From the IMG/VR virus record IMGVR_UViG_2850784384_000006: 25,436 bases of DNA. The stretch is one strand, 5' to 3'. The translations under genes were made by a program, and so were the position numbers. Below the pieces are notes generated by a model. It was not told where the DNA came from, searched no databases, and saw only the letters and a program-made list of their open reading frames with translations. This document shows, piece after piece, positions 1 through 25,436 of this stretch (position 1 is the first letter of the stretch; each line of letters starts with the position of its first letter). This DNA comes from a virus. Lineage: Duplodnaviria > Heunggongvirae > Uroviricota > Caudoviricetes.

Positions 1-276
1 TTACCGACTGCGGCCTGAGTTTTTTAAGTGACGTAAAATCGTGTTGAGGCCAACGCCCATAATGCGGGCAGTTGCCCGGCATCCAACGCCATTCATGGCC
101 ATATCAATGATTTTCTGGTGCGTACCGGGTTGAGAAGCGGTGTAAGTGAACTGCAGTTGCCATGTTTTACGGCAGTGAGAGCAGAGATAGCGCTGATGTC
201 CGGCGGTGCTTTTGCCGTTACGCACCACCCCGTCAGTAGCTGAACAGGAGGGACAGCTGATAGAAACAGAAGCCAC
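1..276 (-). CDS. insA: IS1 InsA (transposition regulator / N-terminal part of InsAB' transposase)
   Basis: 91-aa [46 protein letters not shown]... matches the IS1 InsA sequence as I remember it, with zinc-finger-like CxxC...CxxC; stop codon at 1..3. Confidence 0.9.
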
Positions 277-393: not shown

Positions 394-1395
394 ATGCATA
401 AGAGCAACTGCTTTGATACGGCAAGGCTTGTGGCAGCTATGATGGTTCTAATCAGTCACCACTACGCGCTCTCTGGACAACTCGAGCCGTATATATTCGG
501 CTTTGAAAGTGCTGGCGGCATTGCTGTTATCATATTCTTTTCCATATCAGGATACCTGATTTCAAAATCAGCAATCAGAAGTGATTCCTTTATTGATTTC
601 ATGGCTAAAAGAGCAAGAAGAATATTCCCTGCTCTTGTCCCTTGCTCTGTACTGACGTATTTTTTATTTGGGTGGATGCTTAACAACTTCAGTACAGAAT
701 ATTTTAGTCATGACATTATCCGGAAGACCATAAGCTCTATTTTAATGAGTCAGGCTCCAGATGCCGACATTACATCACATTTAATTCATCCCGGTATTAA
801 CGGCAGCTTGTGGACACTACCACTGGAGTTTATGTGTTACATAATAACTGGAGTGGCTGTTGCTCTACTAAAGAGCGGAAAAACGTTCATAGTTATACTA
901 TTGATTTTTGTTTCACTTTCATTAGTTGAAAGTGTATCTGAGAACAAGGATGTAATATTCTCCATTCCAGTATGGCTGTATCCTTTGCGGGGGATGGCTT
1001 TCTTTTTTGGTGCCACTATGGCGATGTATGAGAAATCTTGGAATGTAAGTAATGTGAAAATTTCCGTGATTTCTTTGCTTGCTATGTACGCATACGCGAG
1101 CTATGGCAAAGGCATTGACTATACAATGGCTTGCTATATTCTGGTTTCTTTCTCAACAATAGCTATATGCACATCCTTTGGAGATCCACTGGTTAAGGGT
1201 AGGTTTGATTACTCTTATGGTGTATACATTTATGCATTCCCCGTTCAGCAGGTTATTATAAATACATTGCATATTGGCTTTTACCCTTCGATGTTGTTAA
1301 GTGCCATTGTCGTTCTTTTCTTGGCTCATCTTTCTTGGAATCTAATTGAAAAAAGATTCCTTACACGAAGCTCGCCAAAATTATCCCTGAATTGA
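394..1395 (+). CDS. oac: Acyltransferase family 3 integral membrane protein, O-antigen O-acetyltransferase-like (serotype-converting Oac type)
   Basis: 333-aa ORF, hydrophobic throughout (multi-TM); N-terminal R...HH motif (RLVAAMMVLISHH) and FFSISGYLIS segment typical of acyltransferase-3; length and N-terminus resemble phage Oac as I recall it. Markedly AT-rich versus flanking phage genes. Symbol is tentative. Confidence 0.7.
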   Translation: MHKSNCFDTARLVAAMMVLISHHYALSGQLEPYIFGFESAGGIAVIIFFSISGYLISKSAIRSDSFIDFMAKRARRIFPALVPCSVLTYFLFGWMLNNFSTEYFSHDIIRKTISSILMSQAPDADITSHLIHPGINGSLWTLPLEFMCYIITGVAVALLKSGKTFIVILLIFVSLSLVESVSENKDVIFSIPVWLYPLRGMAFFFGATMAMYEKSWNVSNVKISVISLLAMYAYASYGKGIDYTMACYILVSFSTIAICTSFGDPLVKGRFDYSYGVYIYAFPVQQVIINTLHIGFYPSMLLSAIVVLFLAHLSWNLIEKRFLTRSSPKLSLN

Positions 1396-2091: not shown

Positions 2092-2901
2092 TTAATATCC
2101 CATTGCAATGTAATACGCATCAGCAGATGAACCATATCCTGAACCGGGCGACACTGTAATATCAAATCCAGTGTTATGGACATTTGTCGCCGATACAGTC
2201 GGCTGCCCTGACGCGCCAGTAACGTTCAATGTAACTGTGACAGCAAGGACTCTTGAGAATGTCATCGGGAACCTCATCCCGTATGTTGAAGATACATTCG
2301 GGGAGCCATTCAACTGACCGCACTGTAAAATTAATCCAGACGGAAATTTTTGCGCAGCAGCCGTTGCGGTATTACTTGACGCGAACAGGCTCATATCAGG
2401 TATCTGATTCGCCCCTGTACCTACATTCCTTTTAGCCGCTTCTCCCAAACCAAGGTATGTGAGAATGTCAGCAATAGTATTTTTCCCAATAATGTCACGG
2501 CCAACAGAAGTTAAATCAGTCTGCGCTGCTGTATCATTTCCAGTGAAATATGGGAGTTTATTTGCACCTGTTGCGAGCCCAGCTAATGCCGACAGCGTGG
2601 CATCAAGCGCCTGGAAATCTTTCCCGAAAGCGGTCCCCATTTTGGATATAAACCCGTTCAGGTCTCCATCATCAAGCACATCCAGCCTGCTTTTGTTGGC
2701 GGTGTACTGCGCCAACGCTGCCGCGATAAAGCTGGCTTGCCGAATAGCTTTGTTGACCTGTGCGCTGGATGCTTTACCTGCCGTAAACCCTGAAAGCAGA
2801 GCCGGAAGTGCTTCCCAGTCAGCTTGTGAGGTGACGTTAGCGTTCGGATCAAGCGCGAAAGGTTTAAAGTTGTTTATTGCCATTAGAGTATTGTCCCCCA
2901 T
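2092..2901 (-). CDS. Tail fibre protein (host-range determinant)
   Basis: 269-aa Gly/Ser/Thr/Ala-rich ORF with low-complexity central region and beta-rich C-terminus, sitting between a DUF2612-like baseplate gene and tfa. Start could be 2901 or the Met at 2883. Confidence 0.6.
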   Translation of the reverse strand: MGDNTLMAINNFKPFALDPNANVTSQADWEALPALLSGFTAGKASSAQVNKAIRQASFIAAALAQYTANKSRLDVLDDGDLNGFISKMGTAFGKDFQALDATLSALAGLATGANKLPYFTGNDTAAQTDLTSVGRDIIGKNTIADILTYLGLGEAAKRNVGTGANQIPDMSLFASSNTATAAAQKFPSGLILQCGQLNGSPNVSSTYGMRFPMTFSRVLAVTVTLNVTGASGQPTVSATNVHNTGFDITVSPGSGYGSSADAYYIAMGY

Positions 2902-3563
2902 GCTCCAACATCGAACCCGCCGATGTATTCGTTATCCATATCAAACCCAAAGAATTTAGAGCCCTCGGATGGTGCTTCTACCGAAGGCGTTTCAACATCA
3001 CCGGCCCATACGCCAGCTGCTTTAACGGTGAGATAGCCCTGTTTGATAGCGGCAATCAGTTCAAGAGACACATCAGAAATATCAGTCTCGGGGAATACCC
3101 AAACCGATATCGTCATGTCCTGGTTGTCGACAATTTGCATCCTCAGGCCTGAGCCTTCAGTCGCAGCGTCAAGGATGGGAGGCAGAGAGTCGTTCCGACC
3201 GTCCCAGTTGTTGATAGCGATTTTCGCTTTCAGAATGATGCGGTACGTCTCATCGCTTAGCGTCGTATAGCCAGAATCAGGATCATATGGCCCTTTCCAG
3301 ATGCCCTGGTCATACCCAAGCCCGTCAGTGTCCCAGCTGAAATAAACTCCGCTAATTGGCTGGCTGACTATGCGACTGCGTCCGATCCACAGACCGAGGA
3401 TGTCGAGCTGTACACCGACAGCAGTATCAATATCGAAGGCTGTTATAAGCCCTGACATAGTGCTGGACACATCAATCAGCGGGCGGGTGCTCAGATCTAT
3501 ATGGTCAAAAAAGAGTGGCTTGGTAGCGTGGTAGTTAGTGATCAGTTCGGTGTATTTGCTCAT
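2883..3563 (-). CDS. Baseplate/tail fibre-associated protein (DUF2612-like)
   Basis: 226-aa ORF immediately downstream of the baseplate J-like gene (ATGA-type overlap at 3560..3563); resemblance and position typical of DUF2612 proteins. Confidence 0.55.
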   Translation of the reverse strand: MSKYTELITNYHATKPLFFDHIDLSTRPLIDVSSTMSGLITAFDIDTAVGVQLDILGLWIGRSRIVSQPISGVYFSWDTDGLGYDQGIWKGPYDPDSGYTTLSDETYRIILKAKIAINNWDGRNDSLPPILDAATEGSGLRMQIVDNQDMTISVWVFPETDISDVSLELIAAIKQGYLTVKAAGVWAGDVETPSVEAPSEGSKFFGFDMDNEYIGGFDVGAWGTIL

Positions 3564-4759
3564 GAGGTCACCGTGATACTGATATTCGCGGTGCTACAGG
3601 ACGCAGAAGCATCATAGGCAATATCAATGTTTGATGCCGATACGCTGCCAGACGACTTACCGATCAGCAGGTCGGTAATATCGTAATAGCGGGCATTCCC
3701 GCCGCTCACAACGCCGAGGTTTGCCGGGGAATAAATACGGCTCAGCAGAACGTCGTCGCCAATTGTTAGGCCATTTATATAATCGGCAACAGCCTGTTTA
3801 ATCTGCTCGCCGATTTGAGAGGTATAGCCGGTAAAAACTTTCAGGGTAATGGCTACGAAAATTGGCACATCGGTAGAGCGCGAAAAACTGATGACGTGTG
3901 GATTACCGTAAGTATCCGGCACCGTGACAGAAGTTTTACCGTAAGTTGCGGTTCCCTGCCCTTTACTCCCCCGGATTGTTTGGGCTATCTCGGTAACATC
4001 CCCTCCATCGACGATGGCGGAAATAGAGTGTGGCGGCAGCCCGTTGCTGTCGGTTGCCCCAGTGTCGTTCTCATATAGTTTGTGACGTGTCACGCCAGCA
4101 ACATTAGCGATAGCACCGTCGACACCTTCAAACGGTGTGATCGATGGTAGCGCGACGCTTTGCCCCTGCCGAATGCGCAGCTCTGCGTCGGTTTCGGCTG
4201 GTGAACCGACAGTAGCCGCAACTGGATTGGTTACCGACACCCAACCTCGGGTCGGGGTGTTGATAGTGGTAATAGTCCCGGCCAGCGCCGCAACCGAACC
4301 GCTATTCGCACATGTGGCCGTCACCAGCACAGTACCATCAACGCCGATCGCTACACTTGCGGGAAAATTCCAGATAATGCCGTTTTTATCCCGTGCGGAG
4401 CCATTCGTGATAGTCGTGCCTGCCGTACCGGTTAACAGAAGGTCAGCAGTAGAGTTTGTCGCTACTTTTCGCGTGATCCCGTTAATTTTCACATTGCTGC
4501 TAAGCGCTGCGGCCTGCGCTGTCGTCGGTGAAAAAGAGTTGTAGATCCCGATAGCGGTGTTGTTAGCGTCATGCACGGCAAGAGCCACCAGCGCGACCAT
4601 CTGCCCGTCTTTGCTGTCTGGTTCGAGGTAGGCATCACTACCGTAAATCTGCCTGAAATAGCTGGTCAGTGTATCTAGGATTGTCTGGTAATCAGGCGCA
4701 CTAATCCCCTGGGCGGTTACCGTTGCCGATAGCCCCAGCGTGTCGAGGTTCAAAGCCAT
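3560..4759 (-). CDS. Baseplate J-like protein (Mu gp47 / P2 gpJ family)
   Basis: 399-aa ORF, Gly/Thr/Ala-rich, abutting the spike-like gene (stop 4760, start 4759); resemblance and synteny spike - J - DUF2612 - fibre. Confidence 0.7.
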   Translation of the reverse strand: MALNLDTLGLSATVTAQGISAPDYQTILDTLTSYFRQIYGSDAYLEPDSKDGQMVALVALAVHDANNTAIGIYNSFSPTTAQAAALSSNVKINGITRKVATNSTADLLLTGTAGTTITNGSARDKNGIIWNFPASVAIGVDGTVLVTATCANSGSVAALAGTITTINTPTRGWVSVTNPVAATVGSPAETDAELRIRQGQSVALPSITPFEGVDGAIANVAGVTRHKLYENDTGATDSNGLPPHSISAIVDGGDVTEIAQTIRGSKGQGTATYGKTSVTVPDTYGNPHVISFSRSTDVPIFVAITLKVFTGYTSQIGEQIKQAVADYINGLTIGDDVLLSRIYSPANLGVVSGGNARYYDITDLLIGKSSGSVSASNIDIAYDASASCSTANISITVTS

Positions 4760-5707
4760 TTATGCCTCGCTTGTTACAGTCGTCTGGCCGTAGATTGTGT
4801 CAATGGAGGAAGTGAAGGTGACGCGACGGCTGGTGCCGTCATAATTGGTATCGAAGGAAAGAATCGACAGAACGCCCGGTGTATCCTGTATGCGTTCGCG
4901 TATAGCCAGGATGTAGACATCTGATCGCTGCTTCCCAAGCACTGACTGAACATACGGCGTGCCTTCCGTCAGATCGAGAAACCACTGACCGCGCCACAGC
5001 TCGAAACGGGTTTTTACGGCCTGGGCGACACTGATACCAGAAGCTGTTACGTCATTCGTTACCATCACCGGCCCAAGCATCGTCGCAGTACCGCCGCTTT
5101 CGCCCATTCCCTGAGACAAGTTGCCATTAATCGTTACGTTGCCGTTCAGCGTGATAGTCGGGGATGTGATTGTCGTTCCACCTTCAGCCGTAGCTGTAAG
5201 CTGGCCCGGTGTTTTAATGGTGATGTTATGTCCTGCGGCGACTTCTACAAACGCCGCACCATCATCGGTTCGCAGCTGCGCGGCGCTGGTACTGATACCG
5301 CTGATTTTCCGTGCTTGCGACTGCGGGCCAACGATGGCGAACGCATCAGATAAGTCATGCTGGCGCGGGTCGACGGTCTCCTGAACGCCGCCGCTCTGCC
5401 ACCAAAAATCGATGCAACGGTCAGCAAAAATCAGGAGGCACTCGTCGCCTTCTTTTACCGGAAAGGTCAGCGTGCAACCGCCGCCGCGCGGGAAGATGAC
5501 CGGCACATCCACCAGCGGTTTTAATTCGGTGGATCCATCGCCAACAATACCGCGTAGCGCCACCTCTACTGTGCAGGTAACAGTCTCAGGATCGAACGAC
5601 TGAATGATGCCGGGCATCGCTACGCGCATCTGGGTAGACACCGAATCGGCAATGGCCTGCGCGGTCTGCTGCTCACCGCCGATCTGTGATTGAGTTGGAA
5701 TTGGCAT
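4760..5707 (-). CDS. Baseplate central spike-like protein (phage Gp138 N-terminal domain type)
   Basis: 315-aa ORF; N-terminal region ...MPGIIQSFDPETVTCTVEVALRG...PLVDVPVIFPRGGG... resembles the Gp138_N OB-fold; Gly/Thr-rich repeats in the middle suggest beta-helix. RBS GGGGG 4 nt before ATG. Confidence 0.6.
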   Translation of the reverse strand: MPIPTQSQIGGEQQTAQAIADSVSTQMRVAMPGIIQSFDPETVTCTVEVALRGIVGDGSTELKPLVDVPVIFPRGGGCTLTFPVKEGDECLLIFADRCIDFWWQSGGVQETVDPRQHDLSDAFAIVGPQSQARKISGISTSAAQLRTDDGAAFVEVAAGHNITIKTPGQLTATAEGGTTITSPTITLNGNVTINGNLSQGMGESGGTATMLGPVMVTNDVTASGISVAQAVKTRFELWRGQWFLDLTEGTPYVQSVLGKQRSDVYILAIRERIQDTPGVLSILSFDTNYDGTSRRVTFTSSIDTIYGQTTVTSEA

Positions 5708-5718
5708 AAAACCCCCAT

Positions 5719-5740
5719 AAAAAAACCAGCCGAAGCTGGT
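5719..5740 (-). terminator. Rho-independent terminator on minus strand, immediately upstream of the spike gene RBS
   Basis: Minus-strand RNA reads ACCAGC-UUCG-GCUGGU followed by seven U (plus-strand A-run 5719..5725); 6-bp stem, tetraloop. Confidence 0.6.
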
Positions 5741-5929
5741 TTGGTATCAATTATCTCTTAGTAACTAAGCTACATCAGTGTGAAGTAAGGCTTTTCCGCT
5801 GCAATGGCACACATTCACAAGGTGTATTAGGATATGTTTGCAACAAGTAAGCATTGAAAATCAATTTCAGCCATGAAGCCGCCATAGAGTGGACCTGCAC
5901 CATCGCATTATTGACTACAGGAGTAACAA

Positions 5930-6220
5930 ATGGGATTTAGATTTCGTAAAAGAATCCGGATTGCGCCCGGACTCGCGATCAACATTAGTAAAAGCGGAGT
6001 AAGCACTTCAATTGGTGGTAAAGGTTCCACCATTAACATCGGGAAAAAAGGCGTAAAGATGACAAATGGCCTTCCCGGCACGGGGCTGTCGCATACCACT
6101 AACCTTTACTCTCCCGGGAAATCGACAGAAAAAAAACAACTTACTCATAAGCAAAAAATAATTAGAAACATCCTGTTCGTAATTATTGTGTTTATAATAA
6201 TTAAAGCTCAATATTTTTGA
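5930..6220 (+). CDS. Small DUF4236-like protein with C-terminal hydrophobic anchor (moron gene)
   Basis: 96-aa ORF MGFRFRKRIRIAPGLAINISKSGVSTSIGGKGSTINIGKKGVKMTNGLPGTGLS... is the characteristic DUF4236 repeat pattern as I recall it; C-terminal IIRNILFVIIVFIIIKAQYF is TM-like. RBS AGGAG at 5918..5922; opposite strand to all flanking phage genes; AT-rich; followed by a terminator. Confidence 0.7.
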   Translation: MGFRFRKRIRIAPGLAINISKSGVSTSIGGKGSTINIGKKGVKMTNGLPGTGLSHTTNLYSPGKSTEKKQLTHKQKIIRNILFVIIVFIIIKAQYF

Positions 6221-6225
6221 CGCAT

Positions 6226-6250
6226 GCCCGCCTATCTGGCGGGCTATTTT
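6226..6250 (+). terminator. Rho-independent terminator for the DUF4236-like gene
   Basis: GCCCGCC-TATCT-GGCGGGC (perfect 7-bp GC stem, 6226..6244) followed by TATTTT, 6 nt after the TGA stop at 6218..6220. Overlaps the stop codon of the convergent minus-strand gene. Confidence 0.65.
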
Positions 6251-6588
6251 ACTTTTCGGCAGTCGTATGTTGCATACTGACGCGGCGAATCCATGCTGGC
6301 TTGCAGCCACTGTGCGTTGAGAATGGCTTTGCCGTTTCGATTGATGTACTCAAGACCAACCCATCTTCCAGGCTGATCGGTAGCCATACGCCAATCCATC
6401 TTGATATTGTTATAATCGCCTTTGTTTTTCAGGAAGGTGATTTTTTGCATTTCTGGCTTTGCGCCATTGATTCTGGCTAAGCCATCATCTGCCCAATGGA
6501 TTTTAAAATCACCACATTGCTGATCCGCAAAAGCGGGTGCTGATATAAGCACCGCGAACACGGTAACAGTGCAAAGTAAATGTCTCAC
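6244..6588 (-). CDS. Small secreted (periplasmic) protein with cleavable signal peptide, function unknown (moron gene)
   Basis: 114-aa ORF with GTG start and SD GAGGTG 6 nt upstream; N-terminus MRHLLCTVTVFAVLISAPAFA/DQQ fits an SPase I signal with AxA site; two Cys in the mature part (possible disulfide). SD overlaps the stop of the upstream hub-like gene, suggesting translational coupling. Confidence 0.6.
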   Translation of the reverse strand: MRHLLCTVTVFAVLISAPAFADQQCGDFKIHWADDGLARINGAKPEMQKITFLKNKGDYNNIKMDWRMATDQPGRWVGLEYINRNGKAILNAQWLQASMDSPRQYATYDCRKVK

Positions 6589-6600
6589 GGCCCCACCTCA

Positions 6601-7665
6601 CTAATTCGTCGTCCCTTGCATTGCTTTCGGGCTATAAAGATCACGAGCGCCACGCGCAAAACACATCAAATCCATGTACCACGCCTGACCTCTGGTGTCG
6701 CCAGTATAGTCGATAGCTTTGACGATATAAACGCCATCCGTCGCAATGCTGGCAGCCTGTGACGTCGTGCCGGTCAGCACACGGTTGCCGTTCTCTTCTG
6801 TTTCGGTGATACGCCCGGGCGACTGTGCTATTTCGCTATTGCCGAGCGTGGCGCGGTACACCGAAGCCTGATCGAGCTGGATAAGACCATTAATACGGAT
6901 GTTTGGGTTTATCAGGCATCGCACGTTTACTCCGCCACCCATCGTTTGTTGCGGCATACCGATCAGGCCAGTATTGGCATTCAACACAATGGCTTCGTGA
7001 ATATATTTATCCTCCGGCACCATCTGGACCTGACCATCCACCAGTTGCCATGTCGCTTTGCACTGCGCAGCAATATTATCCATCACGTTGCGGCTGGATG
7101 AGTAAATCGCGCGGCCACGAGGAAACACGGTATCAGGAAAATCGCCGGTAATGCCCTGTGTCACGCCGAACGCGTTGAAATCCTGCATCGTCGCCCGGTG
7201 CAGATCCGCAACGGTATATCCAGCGGCAAGCGTGGTGATGGTGGTCGCATAGAGGAACGCTTCGTGATCACCAATGGCCTGAATCAACACCCAGGAATCC
7301 GTAATGTTGTCCTTCCCGGTGACGGTGAAGCGAATATCACCGTCAAAAATCAGGCCGTAGTTCTGACCGTTCACCTGCCCTATCTGGTCTGGTGAAATCT
7401 CCCGGGACACACCAACCTGGCTCGCATCAACATCCGGCGCTATACCGTCATACCCGGCAATGATGCGAATTTTGGCAAACTCCTGCCCAAGTATCTTGTT
7501 CGTGGTATCGGTCGAAAGGTTGTAAATTTTCACGTTCGCCACGCGCGGCCAGCGTGTGTCTGCCCACTCGATCTGGAACGTGACCTTAAAGTCAGACAGG
7601 GAAACGCCCTGCCCGTTCTGGTCCAACAGTTGCAGCTCAAAATGGCGCATCCAGTTAAGAGACAT
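6601..7665 (-). CDS. Baseplate hub-like tail protein (late control gene D / Mu gp44-like)
   Basis: 354-aa ORF between the TMP-proximal small tail genes and the spike/J module; assignment by position and general resemblance only. Confidence 0.45.
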   Translation of the reverse strand: MSLNWMRHFELQLLDQNGQGVSLSDFKVTFQIEWADTRWPRVANVKIYNLSTDTTNKILGQEFAKIRIIAGYDGIAPDVDASQVGVSREISPDQIGQVNGQNYGLIFDGDIRFTVTGKDNITDSWVLIQAIGDHEAFLYATTITTLAAGYTVADLHRATMQDFNAFGVTQGITGDFPDTVFPRGRAIYSSSRNVMDNIAAQCKATWQLVDGQVQMVPEDKYIHEAIVLNANTGLIGMPQQTMGGGVNVRCLINPNIRINGLIQLDQASVYRATLGNSEIAQSPGRITETEENGNRVLTGTTSQAASIATDGVYIVKAIDYTGDTRGQAWYMDLMCFARGARDLYSPKAMQGTTN

Positions 7666-23430: not shown

Positions 23431-23502
23431 TGAAGTGGCACACTGAATTTGGCCACCTGAACAGAGGTGATATGCTCACCTCAGAACAACACAGGTGCTC
23501 CA

Positions 23503-24671
<1,169 letters not shown>

Positions 24672-24679
24672 CCACTTCA

Positions 24680-25436
24680 AATCCGAAGAAAATTGCCGGA
24701 CAAACCGCTCGCTGACATATCAACGAAAGAGGTGGCAGCAATGCTAAACACCTACGTAGCAGAAGGTAAAGCGGCTTCCGCAAAATTAATCAGGTCAACC
24801 CTTGTTGACGTTTTTCGTGAGGCAATAGCCGAGGGGCATGTAGCAACGAATCCGGTAACAGCAACCCGCACAGCAAAGTCAGAAGTAAGGCGCTCAAGGC
24901 TGACAGCTAATGAGTATGTCGCGATTTACCATGCAGCCGAACCTCTCCCAATCTGGCTGAGGCTAGCAATGGATTTGGCTGTCGTTACAGGGCAGAGAGT
25001 CGGCGATTTGTGCAGAATGAAATGGTCAGACATAAACGACAACCATCTTCACATTGAACAGAGCAAAACAGGGGCTAAGCTCGCCATTCCGCTGACGCTA
25101 ACGATTGACGCGCTCAATATCTCATTGGCTGATACACTACAGAAATGCAGGGAGGCCAGCAGCAGTGAAACTATAATCGCATCAAAGCATCACGATCCGC
25201 TTTCCCCGAAAACAGTATCGAAGTATTTTACAAAGGCGAGAAATGCATCAGGACTCTCATTTGATGGAGACCCGCCAACATTCCATGAACTGCGTAGCCT
25301 GTCGGCGAGGCTATACCGTAATCAGATTGGCGATAAGTTTGCTCAACGTCTTCTCGGACATAAATCAGATTCAATGGCGGCGCGGTATAGGGACAGCCGT
25401 GGACGGGAATGGGACAAAATTGAAATCGACAAATGA
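24680..25436 (+). pseudogene. int: Lambda-type tyrosine integrase, 5'-truncated by IS911-like element (C-terminal about 250 aa retained)
   Basis: Frame open from the IS boundary to TGA at 25434..25436; translation ...RLAMDLAVVTGQRVGDLCRMKWSDI...TFHELRSLSARLY...LLGHKSDSMAARYRDSRGREWDKIEIDK closely resembles the lambda Int catalytic domain (R, H-x-x-R, H, Y). No authentic start: the track ORF begins at a TTG 13 nt after the IS end. Confidence 0.85.

Follow-up and report, generated by a model that had tools for sequence, protein, structure and literature searches.

How did two small convergent genes come to lie between the baseplate hub and spike genes of a phage tail operon, and what might they do there? 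The question is raised by a 25,436-nt stretch of viral DNA (IMG/VR record IMGVR_UViG_2850784384_000006; the whole stretch is hereafter called the window). Its open reading frames (ORFs) and Pfam matches correspond to the late minus-strand morphogenesis operon of a contractile-tail prophage. One of the two genes, on the plus strand, encodes a protein of the DUF4236 family; the other, on the minus strand, encodes a protein with a signal peptide, and both this gene and its product are called SP below. An earlier note, made from the letters of the window, had described the pair as a single AT-rich moron cassette expressed by the lysogen, with superinfection exclusion among its candidate functions. 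Comparison with related loci leads to a different arrangement. In the reading that we favor, and to which we give a little less than an even chance, the region is an accessory hotspot at the hub-spike junction, in which a fixed exported gene, a DUF4236 moron that can be swapped and a terminator acting as insulator are combined, and it serves exclusion at the cell envelope.

Exchangeable cargo at the hub-spike junction

A scan of IMG/VR with an alignment of SP confirmed 411 relatives, and the best 80 loci were taken for comparison. Slot cargo was compared in 85 loci and the adjacency of SP to the hub gene in 92. The order of the locus is the same in every case: hub, SP, a slot of 275-1714 bp, spike. 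Clustering of the slot DNA distinguishes at least 27 cargo types, the largest group being the DUF4236 cassette (19 of the 85 loci), and the remaining 66 loci hold other genes instead. Among the cargos are a Phd antitoxin with a Fic/Doc toxin, a P22-type antirepressor (P22_AR_N) with an Arc-like gene, EACC1 proteins, a Mu-F-like membrane protein, HEPN-like two-gene sets and several signal-peptide or membrane proteins, besides weak matches to HEPN_IX and PDC. A HEPN-like gene pair occupies the same slot in a prophage of enteropathogenic Escherichia coli (EPEC) E2348/69.

Hub homologues were found in 409 of 5,426 complete E. coli genomes, 53 of which also have DUF4236, so that it is a frequent, if replaceable, occupant of the slot. 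DNA related to the block found in the window occurs in 42 of the 5,426 genomes, the full block in 18. Klebsiella phage GZ7 and another 34 E. coli genomes have divergent DUF4236 genes (about 70% nucleotide identity, 104-105 aa) in the same slot, where they again converge with SP. The DUF4236 genes of E. coli Ecol_AZ147 (locus L096, 5024-5341) and of GZ7 (locus L007, 2873-3190) show neither non-synonymous nor synonymous divergence (dN = dS = 0), which points to very recent sharing of a phage or cassette across genera.

The composition of the region differs from that of its surroundings. GC content and GC content at third codon positions (GC3) are 0.392 and 0.39 in the DUF4236 gene and 0.458 and 0.47 in SP, against 0.53-0.56 and 0.55-0.63 in the hub, spike, plug and baseplate J genes. 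Windowed GC content dips to 0.42 over positions 5700-6450, and the block 5731-6245 has a value of 0.416. Such AT richness is reached by only 6% of the 515-bp segments of the 25-kb window, and the most AT-rich of these segments cover an acyltransferase gene at 394-1395. The AT-rich block of 0.9 kb described in the earlier note is thus borne out by windowed as well as per-gene values clearly below those of the flanks. The two small convergent genes also stand, with coordinates that agree or differ by a few bases, as does the tight packing of the minus-strand tail operon, whose genes abut or overlap by 1-4 nt on both sides of the region (2883..3563 / 3560..4759 / 4760..5707 and 6601..7665 / 7668..7973).

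The limits of the insert were given by pairwise comparison with relatives holding other content. Homology ends at about 5725/5730 on the left, in the T-run of a terminator, and at 6246/6247 on the right, at the SP stop codon. Therefore, the swappable block extends from about 5731 to 6245. Backbones with hub and spike 95-100% identical hold other cargo in the slot. The alignment with related prophages hence confirms an insert, but one that consists of the DUF4236 unit only, with SP outside it.

The two genes also have separate histories. In 56 loci whose hubs share at least 93% identity, the identity of the DUF4236 protein is 96-100%; for the mature domain of the adjacent SP the range is 67-100%, and for the spike 57-100%. 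A nearly invariant DUF4236 protein beside varied SP alleles argues that the two genes reassort independently. Moreover, a 296-aa lipoprotein form of SP is also found next to the same DUF4236 cassette. Since one cassette thus occurs beside numerous SP alleles as well as beside the lipoprotein form, a two-gene system was rejected, and the idea of a single two-gene cassette had to be abandoned: the variable block stops at the SP stop codon, and SP is fixed by the hub gene in 92 of 92 related loci. Neither transposon-like ends nor terminal repeats were found flanking the DUF4236 cassette. Homologous recombination between the conserved flanks is the best account of how cargo is exchanged.

The 92 loci in which SP comes straight after the hub gene include the induced or isolated phages Omnitron (a Citrobacter phage related to the window prophage), SEN34, GZ7 and Mulock. 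Distant phages have the same order: SEN34 (Brunovirus), Mulock, GZ7 and RCIP0034 (Wanchaivirus-type group), as well as ST405-OXA48phi1.2, vB_EcoM-683R1 and Yersinia phage YP3. A hub homologue is present in 119 phage records, but SP in no more than 20 of them, which argues that SP is an accessory gene that became fixed in one Enterobacterales sub-lineage. It is absent from Providencia phage PSTCR3, Burkholderia phage Magia and Hafnia phage yong1, despite homologous hub and spike genes. In PSTCR3, hub and spike genes overlap by 4 nt with nothing between them; this overlap represents the ancestral empty site. Magia has one opposite-strand signal-peptide gene at the hub-spike junction, and yong1 has other genes where SP would be. 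The signal-peptide proteins encoded near the hub gene in two of these distant relatives are unrelated (PSTCR3, locus L111, 1963-2436, plus strand, between plug and hub; Magia, locus L112, 3445-3816, minus strand, between hub and spike). Thus, exported proteins seem to have been acquired repeatedly next to the hub.

This distribution bears on the possibility that both genes are conserved baseplate or tail-assembly components mistaken for cargo. The constant position of SP beside the hub in close relatives, isolated phages included, is what such components would show. However, a baseplate component is expected with all homologous baseplates and in the cytoplasm, whereas SP is found in only 20 of the 119 records, is missing from PSTCR3, Magia and yong1, and has a Sec presequence, a conserved cysteine pair and lipoprotein variants. 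The DUF4236 gene is swapped for unrelated genes in 66 of the 85 loci, and both genes deviate in GC content. This explanation is largely refuted and has become scarcely credible; the description of the two genes as non-structural is supported by the export signal and restricted occurrence of SP and by the antisense, replaceable state of DUF4236. According to the earlier note, constant retention of both genes by related intact phages as baseplate components would speak against a moron. In the related loci compared, SP is retained and DUF4236 is not.

Two proteins predicted to reach the cell envelope

Both proteins are predicted to be located in the envelope, DUF4236 by its C-terminal transmembrane (TM) helix (residues 73-95) and SP by its Sec presequence. 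The DUF4236 protein matches PF14020 with an E-value of 1.8e-20 (73.6 bits for a cut-off of 27), its residues 3-55 aligning with positions 1-54 of a 55-position profile, and ten PHROG families share this N-terminal domain. In the AlphaFold2 model (pLDDT, predicted local distance difference test, 81), a six-strand beta-meander (residues 6-60) is connected by a linker to the TM helix. The sole hydrophobic segment (residues 77-91) is followed by a tail of five residues, KAQYF, and is preceded by 76 residues containing 15 Lys/Arg and one Asp/Glu, i.e., a net charge of +14 ahead of the helix. Homologues of 91-108 aa have the same architecture; others add an SH3_3 domain after the TM helix or a TM2 domain. 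The charge distribution, the lone C-terminal hydrophobic segment and the architecture of the homologues fit a protein that is tail-anchored in the inner membrane, N-in, with a basic beta domain predicted to lie in the cytoplasm. The gene is under purifying selection (dN/dS 0.045).

Genes encoding DUF4236 proteins are found in diverse carriers, myoviruses and siphoviruses of Gram-negative and Gram-positive hosts, in tail as well as lysogeny modules. In a prophage of Pseudomonas syringae B728a, a short gene with DUF4236 and a TM segment lies in a lambda-like tail module, between K-like and J-like genes. A Leclercia prophage has a DUF4236 gene on the opposite strand between the tape-measure and M-like genes, Clostridium phage phiCD146 has one between the tail chaperone and tape-measure genes, and in Pasteurella phage Pmp3 the gene, fused to TM2, follows the hub. 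In Faecalibacterium phage FP_Epona, it is located between the repressor and integrase genes, an interval where Gram-positive phages classically have the exclusion genes that they express as prophages. Among the arguments from context, this repeated occurrence in tail and lysogeny modules speaks most for an accessory role connected with the envelope or with injection. A broader proposal can be formulated from it: tail-anchored DUF4236 proteins would form a widespread inner-membrane class that binds the tape-measure or spike channel from the cytoplasmic face, the hub-spike junction would be a defense hotspot, and SP would be a periplasmic exclusion factor. Taken as a whole, we regard this proposal as rather unlikely.

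A DUF4236 protein of another type was noticed in Photobacterium and Vibrio (loci L106-L109). There, the gene for a 167-aa DUF4236-TM-SH3_3 protein (6001-6504) has in every case the same conserved gene downstream, whose product of 179-191 aa has no Pfam match. The neighborhoods are variable and resemble mobile elements, with NERD, AAA_22, LexA-like, DinI and ParA genes, and the two genes may form a module.

SP gives a full-length match to phrog_3443, a family with no annotated function (E 6.9e-46, residues 2-114 on profile positions 2-114 of 115), and matches no Pfam family. The signal peptide noticed in the earlier note is a Sec-type presequence, which reads MRH / LLCTVTVFAVLISA / PAFA with predicted cleavage ahead of DQQC. 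In all 35 homologues aligned, a basic n-region is followed by a hydrophobic h-region and a c-region of AxA type, in a segment that is otherwise highly divergent. Cys25 and Cys110 are invariant in this alignment and nearly so in a wider one, and the AlphaFold2 model (pLDDT 83) is an eight-stranded up-and-down beta-barrel. In the window, SP is predicted to be a soluble periplasmic substrate of signal peptidase I, disulfide-bonded and without a lipobox. Its dN/dS of 0.06-0.125 indicates purifying selection. Only 57 representatives of this small family were found among 1.84 billion proteins, and the members named by source are all from Enterobacterales.

Some relatives have lipobox-bearing SP fusions of 265-296 aa. 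In these (locus L094, 1975-2865, minus strand; P0207; P0226), the SP barrel forms the C-terminal part of a lipoprotein (lipobox, e.g., LVTGC) with an uncharacterized N-terminal domain of about 190 aa that has no Pfam match. The RefSeq annotation of such sites is limited to a pseudogene or a truncated ORF.

Three other identities were considered for SP and set aside. A role as spanin or lysis protein is contradicted by the lack of a lipobox and by the position of the lysis cassette elsewhere in an intact relative, and a PAAR-like spike tip is ruled out by the fold and the export signal. Avidin homology is unproven. A short local resemblance to avidin/streptavidin (calycin) barrels exists (IxRNGKxxLxxxWL); however, the profile match comes from a tandem-duplicated avidin chain and is not significant per domain (independent E-value 4.9), and the tryptophan of the motif is not conserved in the SP family.

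The sensitive profile and structure searches suggested in the earlier note therefore yielded families and models for both proteins but no functional family. Pfam, NCBIfam and PHROG scans give only DUF4236 and phrog_3443, neither with an assigned function. Essentially no literature exists on DUF4236 (one unrelated mention), and text matches to PF14020 are Plasmodium gene identifiers.

Transcription signals and proposed roles

Two intrinsic terminators are associated with the slot (Table 1). That of the DUF4236 gene, for which a terminator scan gives seven G-C pairs and a T-tract, overlaps the SP stop codon TAA (6244-6246) with its last stem base and its T-tract. It is unidirectional, its minus-strand side being A-rich. 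The terminator that closes the slot lies directly before the spike ribosome-binding site (RBS). In 82 of the 85 loci, a hairpin and T-run are found there regardless of the cargo, with stems that vary (AACCCGC/GCGGGTT, AAGCCGC/GCGGCTT, AAACCAGC/GCTGGTTT); none is present at the empty site of PSTCR3. The earlier note had seen both terminators. Its overlap with the minus-strand stop codon is correct, and so is the presence of the minus-strand hairpin (5742-5723 instead of 5719..5740), but the latter is not specific to the cassette. Together with SP, the spike-proximal terminator belongs to the conserved backbone and not to the mobile cassette.

The plus-strand gene has, as also proposed at first reading, its own RBS and terminator in addition to its PF14020 domain and predicted membrane anchor. 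The RBS, AGGAG, is at 5919-5923, 6 nt ahead of the ATG at 5930. The motif TTGACTACAGGAG that includes this region (5907-5929, plus strand; locus L095, 5020-5040; locus L096, 5003-5023) is kept in three cassette types whose coding sequences are only about 70% identical, and it may be a translational or regulatory element beyond a plain RBS. The DUF4236 promoter is presumed to lie in the leader; the best candidate is ATGGCA-18-TAGGAT, and the best score in this and divergent cassettes is 7.5/12. A small RNA in the leader was also considered and rejected. The Rfam match to isrK (5720-5802, minus strand; 23.4 bits for a gathering threshold of 50, E 0.003-0.017) ends at the slot-closing terminator and appears to be driven by it, and the matched hairpin is partly deleted in some cassette copies.

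Morons were defined by Juhala, Hendrix and colleagues as extra DNA present in some of a set of close relatives, of deviant composition, with its own promoter and terminator and expressed in the prophage (PMC3594210). The DUF4236 unit is present or absent among near-identical backbones, deviates in GC content, is equipped with an RBS and a terminator of its own and runs opposite to the late genes; for this unit, most of the moron architecture can be retained. SP is absent only from the more distant relatives PSTCR3, Magia and yong1, and it is not part of the cassette.

A layered organization can be proposed from these elements. The first layer would be an old accessory gene, fixed by the hub and encoding a Sec-exported eight-stranded barrel that is tethered as a lipoprotein in some relatives. 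The second would be the swappable slot, from the SP stop codon to the terminator, filled here by a one-gene DUF4236 moron on the opposite strand. The third would be the spike-proximal terminator, which would keep SP and cargo transcription of the prophage state out of the spike, wedge and fiber genes. During lytic growth, Q-type antitermination would carry late transcription through this terminator. The insulating role is suggested by the constancy of the hairpin across the loci and by the Q-like antiterminator (phrog_753, E 1.1e-57) encoded by a relative of the window prophage in E. coli TOK-001.

At the envelope, the DUF4236 protein would disturb the inner-membrane channel made by an incoming tape-measure protein or spike. 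The site of action of the SP barrel would be the periplasm or the outer membrane, and its target either an incoming tail part, for instance the tape-measure protein, which has an SLT domain in phages of this type, or the receptor. The likeliest function, with a confidence that stays distinctly below even, is that both proteins exclude superinfecting phages in this manner.

Several observations weigh against such a role. Both folds, as modeled, are generic. PADLOC-DB 2.0 gives no match for the DUF4236 protein and only a chance-level Cas11a match for SP (E 0.045), and neither protein has homology, in Pfam, NCBIfam or PHROG, to the known exclusion families HK97 gp15/YebO, T4 Imm, P22 SieA, Cor and Llp. 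Strict and relaxed scans of four cassette versions found no sigma-70 promoter for DUF4236. Promoter-like sites in the region are no commoner than in shuffled sequence, and the sole candidate near SP lies in coding DNA. Morons cluster in tail operons generally, so that a position near injection genes is weak functional evidence. SP lies within the late operon behind a good RBS, and its translation is in many cases coupled to that of the hub gene; it may mainly be a late lytic protein. Finally, the DUF4236 genes of phiCD146 and Pmp3 are co-oriented with the tail genes, which leaves room for a role in the phage's own infection cycle.

The last two points lead to the view that one or both proteins serve the lytic cycle of the phage, as lineage-specific auxiliary genes and not as lysogen-expressed morons. 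SP could then be a late periplasmic factor that shields the infected cell or the progeny from re-injection into lysing cells, modulates peptidoglycan or SLT activity, or tunes lysis. The SLT domain of the tape-measure protein would fit such a function, as would the strong RBS or overlapping stop and start codons of SP and its retention across the lineage. On the other hand, phages with homologous baseplates do without SP, holin, lysozyme and Rz-like genes form a cassette elsewhere, and DUF4236 is antisense to the late operon here and in all E. coli and Klebsiella versions. In addition, the conserved terminator that follows the slot makes most sense if transcription has to be kept from entering the late genes. 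Such a role in the lytic cycle is therefore considered unlikely.

The other contents of the slot are also informative. The alternative accessory genes of the hotspot probably protect the host from other phages. The presence among them of toxin-type cargo (Phd/Doc, HEPN-like pairs, EACC1 conflict-system parts) is in line with the idea that the DUF4236 protein is an abortive-infection or toxic effector that permeabilizes or depolarizes the inner membrane once infection triggers it, and abortive-infection effectors are commonly small membrane proteins. However, the cassette contains a single gene without a sensor or antitoxin partner and finds no match in PADLOC. DUF4236 is intact in many lysogens, under strong purifying selection and with no sign of a tight regulator, and for its highly basic beta domain a cytoplasmic location is predicted rather than embedding in the membrane. 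This makes abortive infection quite unlikely as an explanation, and envelope exclusion is kept as the preferred reading.

Prophage context and comparison with known systems

The element is a decaying E. coli-type prophage, in which a SEN34-like contractile-tail module is carried by a lambdoid temperate phage. The features of the slot and its flanks are collected in Table 1. The spike ORF (315 aa) is an in-frame fusion of a 246-aa spike with the next gene, of wedge type (117 aa). The fusion arose by a 146-bp deletion between 8-bp direct repeats, and the two genes are separate in the intact relatives L001 and L006. Consequently, the tail module of the window is defective. The hub assignment is supported by homologues annotated as baseplate hub in SEN34, YP3 and Magia.

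Table 1. Features of the hub-spike junction and its flanks (positions in the window)
Feature	Position	Strand	Description
Spike ORF	4760-5707	-	PF18352 (spike N-terminal domain), E 1.3e-41; borders the slot on the left
Slot-closing intrinsic terminator	5716..5742	-	Stem 5742-5723 (8 pairs) and T-run, leading straight to the spike RBS and ATG
Swappable cargo block	5731..6245		DUF4236 gene, 187-nt leader and terminator; limits set by homology breaks
DUF4236 leader	5743..5929	+	AT-rich, non-coding; motif TTGACTACAGGAG ends at the RBS
DUF4236 gene	5930..6220	+	96 aa; Pfam PF14020
DUF4236 intrinsic terminator	6226..6254	+	Stem 6226-6244, 7 G-C pairs, then TATTTTACTT
SP gene	6244..6588	-	GTG start, 114 aa; phrog_3443; Sec signal peptide
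Hub-SP spacer	6589..6600	-	RBS GAGGTGG for the SP GTG start
Baseplate hub	6601-7665	-	E217_GP41 baseplate hub (weak Pfam match); borders the slot on the right
Promoter-like candidate inside the hub gene	6703..6731	-	TTTATA-17-TATACT, 9/12; 115 nt upstream of SP
Plug	7668-7973	-	Pam3_gp18, E 2.2e-25

Further signs of mobility and loss were noted away from the slot. Two copies of an IS3-family insertion sequence (IS) of 1,249 bp each, 99.9% identical and with HTH_Tnp_1 and rve ORFs, are located at 8111-9359 and 23431-24679. The first splits a Dit-like baseplate gene into remnants at 7975-8136 and 9326-9829. The second sits between the small terminase gene and a truncated integrase gene (24693-25436), from which it follows that the early, regulatory and lysis regions are all missing. 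An IS1 InsA ORF lies at the edge of the window (1-276, minus strand). By contrast, the intact relative in E. coli TOK-001 is lambdoid, with CI/Cro/CII, NinB and RusA, and has its holin-lysozyme-Rz cassette at another place.

Beyond the tail-fiber assembly gene, an Acyl_transf_3 gene (394-1395, plus strand, 333 aa, GC content about 0.38) is a second moron-like accessory gene, possibly encoding an O-antigen acetylase. A similar acyltransferase gene adjoins the tail-fiber genes in E. coli LHM10-1 (locus L095). The co-residence of this gene with the slot raises the question of lysogenic conversion without defense, in which the envelope proteins would alter the host (serum resistance, adhesion, stress), as do Bor and Lom of lambda. 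Both proteins are predicted to be targeted to the envelope, and both genes are intact although the prophage is a remnant without its early region. However, no similarity to known virulence or conversion factors was found, the hosts are commensal, environmental and animal isolates of several genera, and the cargo that shares the slot is typical of conflict systems. Conversion alone is very unlikely to account for the two genes, and we return to the reading of the region as a hotspot involved in envelope exclusion.

Known systems offer several points of comparison for this reading. Small membrane proteins that block phage entry are exemplified by HK97 gp15, a protein of the inner membrane which prevents genome entry in a manner dependent on the tail or tape-measure region of the incoming phage (PMC3594210). 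Like the DUF4236 gene, HK97 gene 15 is a small membrane-protein gene in a lambdoid tail operon, with a GC content unlike that of its neighbors. It lies between the tail chaperone and tape-measure genes (PMC3594210), a position identical to that of the DUF4236 gene of phiCD146. There is, however, no sequence relationship; a tail anchor and a beta-rich domain in the cytoplasm are predicted for the DUF4236 protein, and the tail is contractile here. SieA of P22, which blocks the DNA-delivery conduit at the inner membrane (PMC10883804), shows no detected homology either and has three TM helices. Small exported or lipoprotein factors encoded near tail genes, Llp of T5 and Cor of phi80 and N15, mask the receptor from the periplasmic side of the outer membrane (PMC9586334, PMC3594210). 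SP resembles them in its predicted export and in having lipoprotein-tethered variants, and differs in lacking sequence similarity and in being soluble, without a lipobox, in the window.

The combination of an inner-membrane protein with an exported barrel has a parallel as well. T4 pairs the inner-membrane protein Imm with the periplasm-facing protein Sp. No homology to either of them was detected, and the two genes described here are not a co-inherited pair. Imm obstructs the DNA-delivery conduit at the inner membrane and binds the tape-measure protein (bioRxiv 10.64898/2026.03.06.709160).

Tail-operon morons and phage accessory hotspots are already well known. What appears to be undescribed in the searchable literature is the hub-spike hotspot, its exported barrel and the link of DUF4236 to tail and lysogeny modules; no description of a hotspot at this junction was found, which is absence of evidence only, and the SEN34 paper is silent on the locus. 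For annotation, SP and the terminator should be treated as backbone architecture. If the two proteins are indeed exclusion factors, DUF4236, an orphan Pfam domain of many phages and bacteria, would gain a function. With at least 27 cargo types in 85 loci and hub homologues in 409 of the 5,426 E. coli genomes, the slot is a compact and easily mined source of new prophage-borne defense or conversion genes. P2-type hotspots serve as a comparison for accessory and defense loci. As in these and in the lambdoid moron sites, a fixed site between structural genes receives many mutually exclusive cargos that are exchanged through the flanks; the present site differs by its location at the hub-spike junction of a SEN34/Brunovirus-type module, and by its boundaries, an exported anchor gene on one side and a terminator on the other.

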